From UHGV virus genome UHGV-1720292: 10,410 nt of DNA, one strand, 5' to 3'. Within the stretch, counting starts at the first letter, position 1, and each line of letters starts with the position of its first letter. This document shows positions 165 through 10,217 of the stretch, one piece after another. The notes under the pieces are model-generated. The model was not told the DNA's origin. It did no database searches and worked only from the letters and a program-made list of their open reading frames with translations. The position numbers and the translations under genes were made by a program. The stretch comes from a virus.

Positions 165-190
165 AGGTCGCTCAGGCGGCCTTTTTTATT
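165..190 (+). terminator. Putative rho-independent terminator after the upstream gene
   Basis: GGTCGC (166-171), loop TCAG, GCGGCC (176-181) forms a 6-bp stem with one G-U pair, followed directly by TTTTTT (182-187). Sits 10 nt after the upstream stop codon. Confidence 0.4.
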
Positions 191-2707: not shown

Positions 2708-4873
2708 ATGGCCGACGAAAACAGACTCAATTCCATTCTGTGTAAGTTTGACGCGGACTGGATGGCGAGCGATGAAGCCAGAACCGAGGCGACAAATGAC
2801 CTGTATTTTAGCCGAGTGTCGCAATGGGATGACTGGCTATCAAACTACACCACCCTGCAATATCGCGGACAATTCGATGTTGTTCGCCCGGTGGTCAGGA
2901 AGCTGGTCGCAGAGATGCGCCGTAACCCTATCGACGTTCTATTCAGACCAAAAGACGGCGCTAATCCTGATGCTGCCGATGTGTTGATGGGGATGTATCG
3001 TACTGATATGCGCCATAACACGGCAAAAATTGCCGTTAACGTTGGCGTTCGTGAGCAGATAGAGTCAGGCGTTGGTGCATGGCGTCTGGTCACGCAGTAC
3101 GAAGACAACGATCCAACAAGCAACAATCAGGTAATCCGACGCCTGCCAATCCATGAAGCCTGCTCACACGTCATATGGGACGCCAACAGCAAGCAGATGG
3201 ATAAGAGCGACGCTAAGCACTGCACGGTGATTAACGCTTTGTCACGCAATGGCTGGAAAGAGTTCGCAGAGGATTACGGTATTGATCCGGACACCTTGCC
3301 ATCTTTCCAGAATCCGAACGATACATGGCTGTTTCCGTGGGTATCGAATGATGTCGTCTACGTCGCTGAGTATTACGAGGTCGAAGAGAAGAAAGAGAAA
3401 GTCTTCATCTACCGCGACCCGCTGACAGGTGAGCCGGTCAGCTATTACCAGCAGGATATCAAAGACGTCATCGACGACCTGGCTAATCGTGGATTCATTA
3501 AGGTAGCAGAGCGCAAGGTGAAGCGTCGGCGTGTGTATAAGTCGATCATCACCTGCACGCAGATACTGAAAGACCGCGAGAAGATAGCCGGAGAGCATAT
3601 TCCAATCGTTCCAGTGTATGGCGAATGGTCATTCGCTGGTGACAAGGAGTGCTACGAGGGCGTGGTAAGGCTGACGAAAGACGGTCAGCGCCTTCGTAAC
3701 ATGATCATGTCATTCAACGCCGATATTGTTGCTCGTTCACCGAAGAAGAAACCGACCTTCTTCCCTGAGCAAATCGAAGGCTACGAATACATGTACGGTG
3801 GAAATGATGACTATCCGTACTATCTGCAGAACAGGACCGATGAAAACGGTAACGACCTGCCGATTGGTCCAATCTCCTACATGGAAAACCCTGAAGTGCC
3901 GCAAGCCAACGCTTACATGCTTGAGGCTGCCACCAACGCAGTGAAAGAGGTGGCTAGTCTTGGCGTGGATGCGCAGGCGGCAAACTCTCAGGTCGCTTTC
4001 GATACCGTCAATCAACTGAACATGCGGGCGGACCTTGAGACATACGTGTTTCAGGATAACCTGGCTACCGCAATGCGACGTGATGGCGAGATTTATGCCT
4101 CAATGGTCAACGATATTTATGACGTTCCTCGTCATGTAACGCTGACACTTGAAGATGGAAGCGAGAAAGACGTTCAACTCTATGCGCAAGTTGTAGATTA
4201 CCAGTCTGGCAATGTGGTCACACTCAACGACATTCGCGGTCGCTATGAGTGCTATACAGACGTTGGACCATCCTTCCAGAGTATGAAGGAACAGAACCGC
4301 GCAGAGATTCAGGAGTTGCTCACCAAGGTTCCGCAAGGTACTCCAGAGTTCCAGATGCTGATGCTGCAATACTTCACGCTCCTTGACGGTAAAGGCGTCG
4401 AGATGATGCGAGAGTACGCGAATAAGCAACTGGTGATGATGGGGCTGAAGAAACCAGAAACACCTGAAGAGATGGAGATGGTGCAACAGGCACAACAACA
4501 GCCGCAGCAGCCATCAGCAGAGCAAATTCAGGCGCAGGGTATCCTTCTGCAAGGTCAGGCTGAATTGCTCAAGGCAGAGAACCAACAGGCGCAGATTCAG
4601 GTTGAAGCCGCCAAGGTTGAAGCCCAAAACCAACTCAACGCCGCGAAGATTGCAGAAATCTTCAACAATATGGACCTCGACAAGCAGGCAGAACTGCGTG
4701 AGTACCTCAAGCTCGTAGGTCAATTCCAGCAACAGCGCAGCAAAGATGCTCGTGCTAACGCTGAGCTGCTTCTTAAAGATGCAGACCAGACTCATTCACA
4801 ACGCATGGATTTCGCGAATCTTATGCGTCAAGTTCAAATCCCCTCCGGCGGAGTAGCCGAGACACCTCAATAA
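2708..4873 (+). CDS. 1: Portal protein (P22 gp1-like), 721 aa
   Basis: Collinear with the recalled P22 portal (725 aa), including the N-terminus MAD.ENRL and internal [25 protein letters not shown]. Ends in a Gln/Ala-rich helical tail ([50 protein letters not shown]). Confidence 0.95.
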
Positions 4874-4886
4874 GAGAGAGTTAATC

Positions 4887-5798
4887 ATGGACCAAACCAC
4901 CGACATTCAGGCTTCTGAAGAATTAACCCTGCCCGGCAATCATGCAGCGGCATCTGCTGATGGCTTAGTTGTCGATAATGCCAACGACAACGCAGGTCAG
5001 GAAGAAGGCTTCGAGATTGTCCTGAAAGACGATGAGAAACCAAAACAAGACCCGGCAACTAATGCTGAATTTGCCCGTCGCCGCATCGAACGCAAACGCC
5101 AGCGTGAGCTTGAGCAGCAGATGGAAGCGGTTAAGCGTGGAGAATTGCCGGAGCACCTGCGGGTGAACCCTGAGTTACCAAAACAACCAGACCCTAACGA
5201 TTATCTTTCCGAAGATGCACTGGCTAAGTACGACTATGACCAGAGCCGCGCACTGGCTGCCTTCCAGCAGGCAAACAGTGAATGGCAGATCAAGGCTATG
5301 GACGCACGAAGCCAGGCTGTCGCCGAGCAGGGTCGCAAAACTCAGGAGTTCACCCAGCAATCAGCGCAATACGTCGAGGCAGCCCGTAAGCACTACGACG
5401 CAGCGGAAAAGCTCAATATCCCTGACTATCAGGAGAAAGAGGATGCATTCATGCAACTGGTGCCGCCAGCAGTCGGTGCCGACATCATGCGCCTCTTCCC
5501 GGAGAAATCCGCTGCTCTCATGTATCACCTTGGTGCTAATCCTGAAAAAACACGCCAGTTGCTGGCGATGGACGGGCAATCCGCGTTGATTGAACTCACT
5601 CGACTGTCAGAACGTTTAACTCTCAAGCCTCGAGCCAAACCTGTTTCAGAAGCCCCGCTACCTGATGAACCCATTCAGGGACACGCTGTTGCTGCAAATA
5701 TATCTGCGATTGAAAAGCAGATGGAAGCGGCAGCAAACAAAGGGGATGTAGAGACATACCGCAAGCTCAAGGCGCAACTGAATAAAGGAATTCGATAA
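4887..5798 (+). CDS. 8: Scaffolding protein (P22 gp8-like), 303 aa
   Basis: Same length as P22 gp8. Charged, Ala/Gln/Glu-rich helical protein with a C-terminus (...[19 protein letters not shown]) resembling the P22 scaffold coat-binding helix-turn-helix. Sits between portal and coat; GAGAGAG ribosome-binding site upstream. Confidence 0.9.
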
Positions 5799-6320
5799 TT
5801 ATTTCGATATCGTGATGTTGTTTTCCTCGTCAAACTTTCTGATTACTTCTTTCGCCTCTTCGAATGAAGAACATACTTTTTGCACTCTTGCATTAAGCAG
5901 TCGCTTATGAGCGATCCATCTTTTCCGCGTGTTGCAAAAGTAAACTCCAGATATTCCGCTGGAGTTATTTTTAGATAGTTTGATTCTATTCCTTTGGTTT
6001 GCTGATTTTTTCACAAGACGAAGATTTTCAATTCTGTTGTCGTGTCGAATCCCATTTATATGGTCAATTTCCATGCCTTCTGGAATATCTCCGTTAAACA
6101 TTACCCATACGATGCGGTGTGCTAGCCACTTAATGCCGTTAATTCTTATGCGGATATATCCATTGCTTTCTAAAAGACCAGCAACTTTCCCAGCGTGTTT
6201 TGCATTCCAAACGTTGTGATAGTTGCGATTCTTTTTGTTGTTGAAAAATTCAGAGCTTCTGGCTTTCCAAACCAAAGAACCATCGCGGTATTCGAAGTAT
6301 TCATTCAGTTCCATGCTCAT
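5799..6320 (-). CDS. HNH homing endonuclease with NUMOD4-like N-terminus, HNH_3-type nuclease motif and C-terminal AP2-type DNA-binding domain, 173 aa
   Basis: Nuclease motif EIDHINGIRHDNRIENLRLVKKSANQRN. AP2-like segment SGISGVYFCNTRKRWIAHKRLLNARVQKVCSSFEEAKEV. NUMOD4-like N-terminus NEYFEYRDGSLVWKARSS. Antisense to the late operon. My hand count gives about 38-39 percent GC over 5821-6360, against about 50-52 percent in sampled flanking 60-mers. Alternative start at the second Met (6312-6314). Confidence 0.85.
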   Translation of the reverse strand: MSMELNEYFEYRDGSLVWKARSSEFFNNKKNRNYHNVWNAKHAGKVAGLLESNGYIRIRINGIKWLAHRIVWVMFNGDIPEGMEIDHINGIRHDNRIENLRLVKKSANQRNRIKLSKNNSSGISGVYFCNTRKRWIAHKRLLNARVQKVCSSFEEAKEVIRKFDEENNITISK

Positions 6321-6387
6321 AACCCTAATGCGCTATATGTTGATATAACAATAGTATAGCACATAAAGAAAGTAAGGTATTCAATAT

Positions 6388-7683
6388 ATGACTCTCAAAG
6401 AAGGGCAGTTAGTTACTTACGCTATCGATGAAATCATCGAAACCGTCCAGAACCTGACGCCAATGGCGTCCAAAGTGACAAAATACACCCCTCCGGCAGA
6501 ATCCATGCAGCGTTCAAGCAACACCGTGTGGATGCCTGTTGAGCAGGAAGCGCCAACCCAGACTGGCTGGGATTTAACTGGCAACGCAACCGGGATTCTG
6601 GAACTCTCCGTGAAATGCAACATGGGTGATCCGGATAACGATTTCTTCGAGCTTCGTGCAGATGACCTGCGTGATGAGCGTTCTTACCGTCGCCGCATCC
6701 AGGCATCCGCCAAAAAACTGGCGAATAACATTGAGTCAGCGATTGCCAAACAGGCAACTGAAATGGGCTCGCTTGTTGTTCACGATACCCGCGCAATTGG
6801 TCCATCTACTGGCCTGTCTGGCTGGGATTTTGTGTCTGATGCAGAGCGCCTGATGTTCTCCCGTGAGCTAAACCGCGATATGGGCATCAGTTACTTCCTG
6901 AACCCTGACGATTACCGCAAAGCAGGCCGCAACCTGGTAGATGGTGACATCTTCGGGCGCGTTCCTGAAGAAGCGTATCGCAACGGTACTATTCAGCGTC
7001 AGATTGCTGGCTTTGATGAAATTCTTCGCTCGCCGAAACTTCCTGCAGTTACCAAGTCAACCGCTACTGGTGTAACTGTTTCTGGTGCGCAGAAGTTTAA
7101 GCCGCAGGCATACACCCTTGATACCGATGGTAACAAAGAGAACGTCGACAACCGTGTTGCAACGGTGACCGTATCCTCCACCACCGGATTTAAGCGCGGC
7201 GACAAAATCAGCTTCACTGGTGTGAAATTCCTGTCTCAGATGGCGAAGAACGTGCTGACTGATGATGCGACTTTCTCAATCACCCGTGTGATCGATGGTA
7301 CTCACATCGAAATCACGCCGAAACCGATTGCACTGGATGACGCGTCACTGACAAAAGAAGAGAAGGCTTACGCTAACGTAAACACCTCTCTTGCTGATTC
7401 CACTCCGGTAAACGTTCTGAACGTGGCAACAACCACCGCTAACGTGTTCTGGGCTGATGACTCAATCCGCCTGCTGTCTCAGCCGATTCCGGTAACCCAT
7501 GAACTGTTTGCTGGCATGAAAACGTCTTCCTTCAGCATTCCTGGTATTGGTGTTAACGGCATCTTCGCAACGCAGGGTGATATCAATACTCTGTCTGGTA
7601 AGTGCCGTATTGCTGTGTGGTATTCAGCATGTGCTGTACGGCCAGAGGCAATTGGTGTTGGTCTGCCTAACCAGACCGCGTGA
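6388..7683 (+). CDS. 5: Major capsid (coat) protein (P22 gp5-like), 431 aa
   Basis: Near-collinear with the recalled P22 coat protein (430 aa), for example [91 protein letters not shown] and the C-terminus [18 protein letters not shown] ribosome-binding site upstream. Confidence 0.95.
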
Positions 7684-7690
7684 TAACCAG

Positions 7691-7716
7691 AGGGAGCTTC
7701 GGCTCCCTTTTCTATT
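7691..7716 (+). terminator. Rho-independent terminator immediately downstream of the coat gene
   Basis: AGGGAGC (7691-7697), TTCG tetraloop (7698-7701), GCTCCCT (7702-7708), then a T-rich run TTTTCTATT. Begins 8 nt after the coat stop codon. Likely partial, given that essential genes follow. Confidence 0.7.
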
Positions 7717-7726
7717 GGAGATACCA

Positions 7727-8320
7727 ATGAGCGTAATGATTTTTCAGGCTGGCGGAGATACCAAAATCTGGGGACGCAAGCTGAAAACGAAAACCGTTGA
7801 TCCTGATGATGTAGCTGTGCACTTAGCAAATGGCTGGTATAAGCACCCTGACGATGTTCCTGATGATCCTCTTGTTGGTGATCACATTAGGAGTGTTGGC
7901 GTAGGTGAAACTTCCCCAGTTGATATGGGCGAAGTGTCCGACGGTTATCACACTTTTAACGAGCTTTACGCTCACCGAGTGCGCCTCTTCTCATCGCTGA
8001 TGCATGCTTACGCTGAGCTTTCGTGGTGGTCTCGCAAACACAGTGACGGTGAAGAGTGGGATGGCTGGATCATTGCTGGTATCACCACTCCAGAAGGCGA
8101 AATCACTTATCACCTACCTGTTGAAGAAATCGAGTTCCTTCCTGAAGGTACTGAGCTTGAGTTCGGGAAAGAGTGGGATGGTCATGAAGCAAATGATGTT
8201 CTTGGACGACTCCTGAGTTTGCGTCCGGCTATTGCAGAGCCAGAGCCAGAAGAAAAACAGCGTAAAAAGCCTGGTCGAAAACCTAAGGCGGCAGCAGATG
8301 AACCTGACAACGAAGGGTGA
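7727..8320 (+). CDS. Hypothetical acidic protein, 197 aa, between coat and gene 4; function unknown
   Basis: ATG 7727 with GGAG (7717-7720) 6 nt upstream, just past the coat terminator. The track's longer 7547..8320 ORF is the same frame extended back through the coat 3' end and the terminator. D/E- and W-rich, with two EWDG motifs ([11 protein letters not shown] and [11 protein letters not shown]) and a basic C-terminal tail [15 protein letters not shown] content similar to flanks. Overlaps gene 4 by 23 nt. No family recognised. Confidence 0.7.
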
Positions 8321-8798
8321 TTTAGTCCTTGCGGCATTACGTAAGCTCGGTGTGGCATCAAATGCCACGTTAACAGATGTCGAACCGCAGTCTATGGAAG
8401 ACGGCGTCAACGACCTTGAAATGATGATGGCTGAATGGATTGGCGGTGATGCGTCACCTGGTATCAACGTTGGCTACATTTTTGCTGATGCAGATGTTGC
8501 TCCGGATCCGGGCGATGAGCACGGTTTATCAAATAACGCTATCAATGCCGTCATTTTCAACCTTGCCTGCCGCATTGCTCCAGATTATGCGCTGGAAGCG
8601 TCTGCAAAACTTATAACCACTGCCAGATACGGGAAAGAGCGACTCGTCAAACTGTCTGCAATGGACAGAGCAAAAGCCGCTAAATGTAAGTCAGGTTATC
8701 CAAACCGTATGCCTGTTGGTAGTGGTAACCAGTTGGCGAAGTGGAACGGTTGGAATTACTTCCAGCGAAAGGAACCTTGCGATAACGGGAGCGAATAA
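8298..8798 (+). CDS. 4: Head-completion / tail-adaptor protein (P22 gp4-like), 166 aa
   Basis: Starting at ATG 8298 ([32 protein letters not shown]...) gives 166 aa, the recalled length of P22 gp4, with matching N-terminal and [14 protein letters not shown] motifs. The track's 8232 start would add 22 residues inside the preceding ORF. Confidence 0.85.
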
Positions 8799-10217
8799 AT
8801 GCCGATTCAGCAACTTCCGCTTATGAAAGGTGTCGGCAAAGACTTTCGAAACGCCGACTATATCGACTATCTGCCAGTGAATATGCTGGCTACACCAAAA
8901 GAAATCCTTAACAGCAGCGGATATCTTCGCTCATTCCCGGGCATTGCCAAACGTTCTGATGTGAACGGTATATCGCGCGGCGTCGAGTACAACATGGCGC
9001 AGAGTGCTGTATATCGCGTGTGTGGGGGCAAGCTGTATAAGGGCGAAAGCGAAGTCGGTGATGTTGCCGGAAGTGGTCGTGTATCAATGGCGCATGGTCG
9101 GACATCTCAGGCTGTAGGCGTTAATGGTCAACTGGTAGAGTATCGCTATGATGGCACGGTTAAAACCGTCTCAAACTGGCCTGCAGATAGCGGATTCACT
9201 CAGTATGAGTTAGGTTCGGTTCGTGACATTACGCGCTTGCGTGGGCGTTATGCGTGGTCAAAAGACGGCACTGATTCATGGTTTATCACTGACCTTGAAG
9301 ACGAATCGCATCCTGACCGTTACAGCGCACAATATCGTGCCGAGTCTCAGCCTGACGGCATCATCGGCATCGGAACATGGCGAGACTTCATCGTCTGCTT
9401 TGGTTCATCGACGATTGAATATTTCTCCCTGACTGGCGCAACCACCGTTGGTGCCGCTTTGTATGTCGCACAGCCATCACTGATGGTGCAAAAAGGCATC
9501 GCCGGGACTTACTGCAAAACGCCGTTTGCTGATTCGTATGCGTTCATCAGCAATCCGGCAACAGGTGCGCCGTCTGTGTACATCATCGGTTCCGGTCAGG
9601 TATCACCAATCGCCAGCGCGAGCATTGAGAAAATACTACGCTCCTACACTGCTGATGAACTGGCTGATGGCGTGATGGAGTCTCTGCGATTTGATGCGCA
9701 TGAGTTGCTGATTATCCACCTTCCGCGCCATGTCCTCGTGTACGACGCATCTTCAAGCGCCAATGGTCCGCAATGGTGTGTGTTGAAAACAGGCCTGTAT
9801 GACGATGTGTACCGCGCTATCGACTTCATTTACGAAGGCAATCAGATAACGTGCGGCGATAAGCTGGAGTCCGTGACCGGGAAATTGCAGTTCGACATCA
9901 GCAGCCAGTATGGTCTTCAACAGGAACACCTGCTGTTTACTCCTCTGTTCAAAGCGGATAACGCCAGAGTTTTCGACCTTGAAGTTGAATCTTCAACTGG
10001 CGTTGCGCAGTACGCTGACCGCCTGTTCCTCTCTGCAACCACTGACGGAATCAATTACGGACGTGAGCAGATGATTGAGCAGAATGAACCGTTCGTTTAC
10101 GACAAGCGCGTTTTATGGAAGCGAGTCGGGCGCATCAGGAAAAATGTTGGCTTCAAATTGCGCGTTATCACGAAGTCACCTGTAACTCTGTCTGGCTGCC
10201 AGATAAGGATTGAGTAA
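8799..10217 (+). CDS. 10: Tail hub / adaptor protein (P22 gp10-like), 472 aa
   Basis: Same length as P22 gp10 (472 aa) and in the conserved position between gene 4 and gene 26. ATG abuts the gene 4 stop. Confidence 0.85.

Follow-up and report, generated by a model that had tools for sequence, protein, structure and literature searches.

A stretch of 10,410 nucleotides (nt) of the virus genome UHGV-1720292, here called the window and numbered from its first letter, holds the packaging and head-assembly section of a P22-like phage or prophage of Escherichia coli. Within it, the genes for the scaffolding protein and the major capsid (coat) protein are separated by a gap at 5799-6387 that encodes an HNH endonuclease on the opposite strand. 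This gap is probably a mobile, free-standing HNH homing-endonuclease cassette, inserted in reversed orientation into the late operon of a P22-like (Lederbergvirus-type) phage, with the coat gene beyond it being expressed through read-through of late transcription under the antiterminator Q. The cassette has precise boundaries, is absent from most close relatives, and brings a replacement ribosome-binding site (RBS) for the coat gene.

The scaffold gene (4887-5798, plus strand; PF09306, E 1.7e-179) and the coat gene (6388-7683, plus strand; PF11651, E 1.2e-164) flank a gap of 589 nt, most of which is taken up by the 173-amino-acid HNH open reading frame (ORF) on the minus strand (5799-6320; PF13392, the HNH_3 family, E 3.9e-22). 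A first-pass annotation of this DNA had drawn the interval as 5796-6390, which includes the scaffold stop codon and the coat start codon, and had described it as an AT-rich stretch without a credible sense ORF between two genes of the same strand. The ORF and Pfam data agree with this description. The G+C content of the gap is 37.5%, compared with 51.8% for scaffold and coat together, and the plus-strand ORFs in the gap reach only 79, 54 and 41 amino acids. The longest of these (5980-6219) has no Pfam match, and its frame is interrupted by 7-12 stop codons in three diverged homologous cassettes; lacking a family match and closed in other lineages, it is rejected as a gene, and the earlier suspicion that it is spurious holds. 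Shine-Dalgarno (SD)-like motifs were absent before the plus-strand start codons in the gap, except at the coat ATG.

Comparison with related phages shows how the gap arose. Escherichia phages Dewey and Louie match the region of the window at 99.1% identity and have the same HNH gene, whereas phages IME10, HZ41, APC_JM3.2 and CurroJimenez match both flanks at 96-97% but are missing about 590 bp in between. In these empty sites the scaffold stop codon overlaps the coat start codon by one base (TAATG), and the gap is therefore an insertion placed exactly in this overlap. This type of scaffold/coat junction is present in 217 of 5,426 complete E. coli genomes; the insert is found in 20 of the 217, always as a single copy and with at least 99% identity, and the remaining junction genomes (roughly 200), relatives at 95-99% identity, have the empty site. 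The element is thus polymorphic for presence and absence at one precise site among near-identical genomes, as seen in Dewey and Louie versus CurroJimenez and IME10. No intron or intein is involved, and the HNH gene lies between intact, full-length scaffold and coat ORFs. On the scaffold side the junction is tight: the scaffold stop (5796-5798) directly abuts the HNH stop of the opposite strand (TAA next to TTA). The stops also abut in two of the three diverged lineages that carry the cassette (L156 and L151), and in the third (L157) they are separated by 11 nt.

On the coat side the cassette carries two adaptations. The first, identified by alignment to empty sites, is a block at 6370-6387 (plus strand) directly before the coat start that copies, with some divergence, the 18 nt at the 3' end of the scaffold gene. 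In the empty sites the AAGG of the scaffold end served as the coat RBS; the copy includes an AAGG (6374-6377), now the coat SD sequence 10 nt before the ATG, and the cassette thus carries a replacement for the translation signals that it displaced. The block GTAAGG..ATATG is conserved in all four lineages. The second adaptation is a recoded coat 5' end (6388-6426, plus strand), recognized by its mismatches to empty-site alleles. Coat nucleotides 4-39 (6391-6426) differ from these alleles by 14 substitutions in 36 nt, resulting in three amino-acid changes, compared with a difference of about 2% over the other 1,257 nt of the gene.

The recoded patch is tightly linked to the endonuclease. In a sample of 84 loci, comprising 13 with the HNH gene (the window and Dewey included) and 71 without it, the patch is present in all 13 carriers and in none of the non-carriers, and the ancestral version is present in 71 of 71 non-carriers, where it is nearly invariant. 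Coat codons 5-7 read GAAGGGCAG, with a GGG-CAG signature, in all four HNH-bearing lineages, and GAAGGTCAA in both lineages without HNH, namely the IME10 type and the Salmonella P22/L type. Compared with the lineage whose endonuclease is 82% identical, the patch of the window is 83% identical, close to the 80% seen over the rest of the coat gene, whereas the empty-site allele is only 60% identical to that lineage over the patch, which suggests that the patch is donor sequence brought along with the cassette. The recognition site of the enzyme is presumed to lie at the very start of the coat gene, and the recoded 5' end is presumed to be a protected version of this homing target.

Both edges of the cassette also bear a 23-nt inverted repeat, complementary at 18 of 23 positions. 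One arm (5791-5813) spans the scaffold stop and the HNH 3' end, and the other (6419-6441) covers the end of the recoded coat patch. By a rough, post hoc estimate the occurrence of such a repeat at both edges by chance is unlikely; the repeat is not obviously conserved in L156.

Diversity around the insertion is distributed as would be expected had the cassette recently spread laterally with a short tract of co-conversion. Across the same 13 carriers, the insert has a nucleotide diversity of 0.0038, the scaffold gene one of 0.0107 and the coat gene one of 0.0205, so that the insert is 3-5 times less diverse than its flanks, across varied flank backgrounds. Carriers form no group by flank sequence, and 11 of the 13 have a non-carrier as their closest match in flank haplotype. 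The flanks of carrier L073 and of the cassette-free CurroJimenez differ at just 3 of 2,166 sites. Mechanistically, the cassette enzyme would cut or nick the scaffold/coat junction of relatives that lack the cassette and are not recoded. A genome with the cassette would then serve as the repair template, so that the cassette is copied in (intronless homing), and the recoded patch would make the carrier immune.

The encoded protein has the catalytic domain of an HNH enzyme. Its HNH_3 domain lies at amino acids 66-110, followed by a weak AP2-like match at 121-139 (E 0.019), and all lineages share the catalytic DHINGIRHDN motif. Among solved structures, that of I-HmuI (1U3E, E 8e-4, over amino acids 35-120) is the closest by sequence. 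Relative to the 82% identical homolog, the ratio of nonsynonymous to synonymous substitution rates (dN/dS) is 0.05, synonymous sites being nearly saturated, and the ORF has stayed intact in four lineages down to 59% identity; the enzyme is maintained by purifying selection. The 173-amino-acid ORF opens at the first of two ATGs. The HNH SD sequence stands 2 nt from the first ATG (6320) and 8 nt from the second (6314), owing to a 5-nt deletion between the SD and the first ATG (6321-6326) that is seen in comparison with L156, L151 and L157. The PGAP/NCBI annotation of the E. coli S10 prophage starts the gene at the second ATG, and translation in this lineage probably begins there as well, to give 171 amino acids.

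Relatives of the protein were found by searching a large protein collection. Those at 82%, 74% and 59% identity all lie between a P22-type scaffold gene and coat gene, all in antisense, and the spacer that separates the HNH and coat start codons measures 67, 66, 67 and 60 nt in the four lineages. The next relatives (54-60% identity over partial length) occur elsewhere, in unrelated phage contexts, and run in the same direction as the genes beside them. Among 31 homolog loci, a single one was opposed to both neighbours, a count that comes from a crude longest-ORF heuristic and is indicative only. Dewey (PQ850600) has six annotated HNH coding sequences in 40 kb, and the five apart from the cassette gene all follow the direction of their neighbours. 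In general, then, reversed orientation is uncommon, but in this clade it is fixed. Because the arrangement recurs in 20 complete E. coli genomes (at least 99% identity), in Dewey, in Louie and in three more diverged lineages, it is not a chance feature. Another HNH gene of Dewey also resides in the late operon, where it is flanked by the lysis genes and the small terminase gene and shares their orientation.

How the coat gene is transcribed behind such an insert is the next question. The first-pass annotation had argued that coat transcripts must cross the untranslated antisense sequence, that this stretch would invite Rho-dependent polarity, and that antitermination could prevent it. Coat transcripts must indeed either cross the endonuclease sequence or start inside it. 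The need for read-through and the concern about Rho are both reasonable, since the gap has the most Rho-loading-like composition of the window, although composition is not proof of Rho action. Within the gap, 11 of 51 80-nt windows are G-poor with more C than G, compared with 1.2% across the whole 10.4 kb, so that the gap holds nearly all such windows. The signal is strongest right after the scaffold stop: the most G-poor plus-strand stretch with more C than G, a candidate Rho-loading region judged by composition only, is at 5781-5900 (25% C and 12% G at its peak). Further along, a scan of both strands marked a hairpin at 5936-5972 that is preceded by an A-tract and followed by a U-tract and resembles a bidirectional intrinsic terminator; its plus-strand fold has -13.4 kcal/mol (z score -5.1), with the plus-strand scan site at 5943-5966. 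The hairpin lies within the HNH codons for NNSSGISGV. Across the four lineages the homologous hairpin falls from -14.5 to -9.9, -8.1 and -5.4 kcal/mol, and, decaying with divergence in this way, it was rejected as a conserved terminator and is either lineage-specific or incidental.

The phages that carry the cassette encode the factor that would overcome such obstacles. In Dewey, CDS0064 is a Q-family antiterminator (PF03589, E 1.3e-57) situated just upstream of the lysis and morphogenesis genes, and the S10 prophage has an annotated "antiterminator Q family protein"; the appeal to antitermination thus finds its agent. Q switches on the late operons of lambdoid and P22-like phages (PMC2629481), and the Q protein of phage lambda suppresses polarity, rendering polymerase highly processive and termination-resistant (PMC12360218). 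A second terminator-like site is found far upstream at 165-182 (plus strand), consisting of a hairpin and T-run (AGGTCGCTCAGGCGGCCT TTTTTATT; -11.6 kcal/mol, z -3.1). An upstream ORF and the DUF2560 gene (295-537) flank this site within the late operon, ahead of the packaging genes, which means that late transcription must pass a terminator-like site there anyway. A single late transcript running through internal terminator-like sites to the coat gene is consistent with both 165-182 and 5943-5966.

Read-through by Q-modified polymerase is the economical explanation. The coat gene and the other genes of the operon would share one late transcript, antiterminated by Q; polymerase modified by Q would ignore both the 5936-5972 hairpin and Rho loading over the 589 untranslated nt, and ribosomes would initiate afresh at the coat SD supplied by the cassette. 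The earlier deduction that the arrangement implies either a dedicated coat promoter or temporal regulation of the endonuclease does not follow, since Q antitermination would be sufficient alone.

The endonuclease itself would be transcribed from a weak sigma-70 promoter of its own in the spacer, independently of late transcription. This AT-rich divergent spacer (6321-6387, 67 nt), similar in length in the four lineages, contains on the minus strand the candidate extended -10 element TGCTATACT (6353-6361), 32 nt upstream of the HNH ATG. Read in the HNH sense, the corresponding elements of the other lineages are TGCTATAAT, TGCTATACT and TATAAT, 30-34 nt before the start codon, and the TG extension is present in three of the four. 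Such an extension is typical of promoters that do not depend on a -35 element. One possible -35 hexamer, TTGCAT in L157, was rejected as a good match, with only 3 of 6 positions agreeing and the site left uncalled by the scan. L157 also has a scan-called HNH-sense terminator directly after the HNH stop, so that the HNH gene of that lineage may form a self-contained unit. In the window, a minus-strand terminator-like hairpin at 5553-5567 (CGCCAGCAACTGGCG plus TGTTTTTT) is found inside the scaffold gene, about 230 nt past the HNH stop, and could end HNH transcripts. The same hairpin is present in the cassette-free CurroJimenez and hence predates the insertion.

The spacer is also structured. An inverted repeat (6328-6364 in the window) forms a hairpin at an equivalent place in each of the four lineages, every time with its own sequence, and one arm holds the -10-like hexamer. 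Folded in the HNH sense, the four spacers have z scores of -2.65, -4.22, -3.10 and -3.13 against shuffled controls; in the coat sense the folds are weaker (-1.97, -1.92, -1.42 and -3.27). An extended HNH-sense fold pairs the HNH SD sequence, but this pairing is given little weight because two divergent RBSs in a short spacer are complementary by construction. These structures come from single-sequence folds, since an RNAalifold consensus of the spacer gave nothing useful on either strand; the MAFFT alignment leaves the lineage-specific hairpins out of register.

The convergent transcription of the endonuclease that the first-pass annotation anticipated is plausible, given the conserved -10-like element upstream of the gene. 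Late transcription, once begun, would probably damp HNH expression: interference between convergent promoters has been studied (PMC5001618), and a weak HNH promoter would be expected to lose to heavy late transcription. A stronger version of this idea is that the reversed orientation is functional. The conserved sigma-70 -10 element would let a repressed prophage, or a phage early in infection, make the nuclease; a carrier lysogen would cut cassette-free P22-like relatives at the scaffold/coat junction and thereby combine homing with exclusion; and Q-driven convergent transcription, together with antisense RNA, would later switch the nuclease off. We hold this version to be speculative and rather unlikely. 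If true, gene orientation would here encode a temporal switch by which temperate phages control a selfish nuclease. In addition, the recoded copy of the target overlaps the promoter region and might double as an autoregulatory operator, a situation for which I-TevI provides a case.

An alternative for the coat gene is a dedicated promoter within the cassette, with the 5936-5972 hairpin, Rho, or both stopping late read-through upstream of it. Two candidate sites exist. One is the plus-strand hexamer TAGTAT (6352-6357), the weak half of a symmetric -10 that overlaps the HNH -10 element and has the reciprocal -11A/-7T geometry known from bidirectional promoters (PMC10268837). The other is a coat-sense motif inside the HNH gene (6037-6064, plus strand; TTGTCG-16-TATGGT) with a position weight matrix (PWM) score of 9.0, and a homologous site is called in L156, L151 and L157. 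Both candidates lie downstream of the terminator-like hairpin and the sequence with a composition like that of Rho-utilization sites, and endonuclease genes of phage T4 are known to contain promoters that serve essential genes downstream (PMC2988022). However, TAGTAT has neither a -35 nor a TG extension, and its counterparts elsewhere are poorer (CATTAT, GAGTAT and AATTAT). Across the spacer, a consensus scan for a plus-strand coat promoter returned none, and a PWM scan returned only TTGATA with a poor -10 and TAGTAT without a -35. The internal motif runs antisense to the codons for DHINGIRHDN, and the same criteria are passed by 9 of 31 homologs from unrelated contexts; it was therefore rejected as a selected coat promoter and is better explained as a by-product of the catalytic motif. 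The hairpin that would stop read-through is not conserved, and a constitutive sigma-70 promoter would express coat protein in lysogens and uncouple the most abundant virion protein from Q. A dedicated coat promoter, one branch of the earlier deduction, is thus improbable.

It is about equally hard to maintain that the HNH gene is a silent passenger, essentially unexpressed as has been proposed for segD of phage T4, and kept by linkage to essential neighbours, since a clean deletion must restore the coat translation signals; the whole insert would then be inert spacer crossed by the late transcript. Several observations fit this picture: no consensus promoter is called upstream of HNH, the SD spacing in this lineage is suboptimal, one copy is truncated, the sole coat RBS sits in the cassette so that imprecise loss is penalised, and transcript levels of the T4 endonuclease gene segD are "vanishingly low" in the published view (PMC2988022). 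Against it stand the dN/dS of 0.05 with an ORF intact in four lineages to 59% identity, the -10-like element at a fixed distance from the start codon, the low diversity of the insert (3-5 times below the flanks) in varied backgrounds, and the tight linkage of the recoded target to HNH. The truncated copy belongs to one E. coli genome (P0005); it has 102 amino acids and is 100% identical over 56% of the length, which suggests that the HNH gene has decayed in at least one prophage.

HNH proteins of the HK97 gp74 type are encoded next to the terminase genes in some cos phages. That the cassette protein is likewise a morphogenesis cofactor and not a selfish enzyme is very improbable: the gene does sit within the head-morphogenesis module, and many siphovirus relatives at 40% identity adjoin "head morphogenesis" genes, but about 90% of the relatives at 95-99% identity lack it although their terminase, portal, scaffold and coat genes are the same, it is oriented against the operon, its HNH_3 plus AP2-like type has I-HmuI as the closest structure, it has the low-GC anatomy of a cassette with a recoded target, and it is not the conserved, co-transcribed packaging partner that defines the terminase-associated class.

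Several points weigh against a homing cassette with Q-dependent read-through. The consensus promoter scan leaves the HNH -10 sites uncalled, with poor -35 regions, and a usable -35 is absent at the candidate promoter in three lineages. HNH expression may be very low, considering the 2-nt SD spacing and the truncated copy in P0005. The presence of Q is taken from near-identical (99%) cassette genomes, as the window ends before the Q region, and we infer read-through, the HNH promoter and transcriptional interference from sequence features. The homing target and the immunity of carriers are likewise deduced from an association between sequences. Finally, heavy recombination of P22-like prophages around a linked marker could produce varied flanks without homing.

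Known systems place the homing cassette in a broader context. Its nearest parallel in layout is segD, the only T4 endonuclease gene opposed to its neighbours, which are the major capsid gene 23 and gene 24; a search of its surroundings for an obvious strong promoter gave none, and its predicted RBS lies 2 nt from the AUG (PMC2988022). Like segD, the cassette gene is antisense beside a capsid gene, has an RBS 2 nt from the first AUG and would have to be crossed by late transcription. The two differ in that segD encodes a GIY-YIG enzyme and the cassette an HNH_3 enzyme, and in that T4 is virulent with its own late sigma factor whereas the cassette host is a temperate lambdoid phage with Q. The cassette, unlike segD, also comes with a linked recoded target, empty-site relatives and a visible, conserved -10-like element.

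More generally, free-standing endonuclease genes of T4 and other T-even phages (mobE, segF, segG and others) are intergenic, have their target in a neighbouring gene and co-convert the flanks (PMC2988022; PMC2790892). Their regulatory adaptations include promoters and terminators inside endonuclease ORFs and hairpins over the endonuclease RBS (PMC2988022; PMC2790892). The resemblance to intronless homing in T-even phages lies in cassettes adapted so that expression of the host genes survives. Those endonuclease genes, however, point the same way as their neighbours, many being promoter-less passengers, whereas the present cassette is reversed; and their cleavage sites can lie hundreds of bases away, whereas the presumed target of the cassette abuts the insertion point. 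I-HmuI, a nicking enzyme of the Bacillus phage SPO1, shares the HNH core and a similar size (174 amino acids), but it is intron-encoded, only distantly similar, and different in its C-terminal DNA-binding region.

Two features of lambdoid late operons also bear comparison. Morons, a concept developed for P22-like phages as well (PMC2629481), are low-GC extra genes, potentially self-transcribed, between genes that are adjacent in relatives. The cassette is similar in these respects but differs in being a selfish nuclease and not a lysogenic-conversion gene, and in its precise and recurrent site, recoded target and reversed orientation. Antitermination of the lambda Q or P22 gene 23 type offers the mechanism by which one late transcript passes terminators and untranslated stretches. 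The Q genes lie outside both the cassette and the window and differ between carriers (207 amino acids in Dewey and 172 in S10), which argues that there is no specific co-adaptation.

The cassette is therefore of the same kind as the T-even elements, in another phage group and with another nuclease family, and is not a new category. What it adds is a temperate, Q-antiterminated setting, a visible recoded target, a replacement coat RBS and reversed orientation in four lineages. No paper describing the cassette in P22-like phages was found in the literature, and the genome announcement of Dewey and Louie is silent on it. If read-through holds, a Q-controlled lambdoid late operon can tolerate 589 untranslated, terminator-bearing and Rho-prone nucleotides before its most expressed gene, an arrangement repeated in at least four lineages. 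It would provide a clean natural example of how an essential operon accommodates a selfish nuclease cassette. A tractable near-isogenic pair is available in Dewey, which has the cassette, and CurroJimenez, which lacks it, and the genome announcement ties both to the BASEL phage work.

The remaining genes of the window, all on the plus strand and all with strong Pfam matches, encode the small terminase (736-1230), the large terminase (1208-2707), the portal protein (2708-4873), gp4 (ending at 8798) and gp10 (8799-10217). In addition, the interval between coat and gp4 is occupied by an ORF with a WDGH domain (7547-8320, plus strand; PF25311, E 2.3e-39). In Dewey, IME10 and the S10 prophage this interval is short, with small hypothetical ORFs only, and the distant lineage L157 likewise has a WDGH gene between coat and gp4. 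The coat-gp4 interval looks like another variable slot of the late operon.

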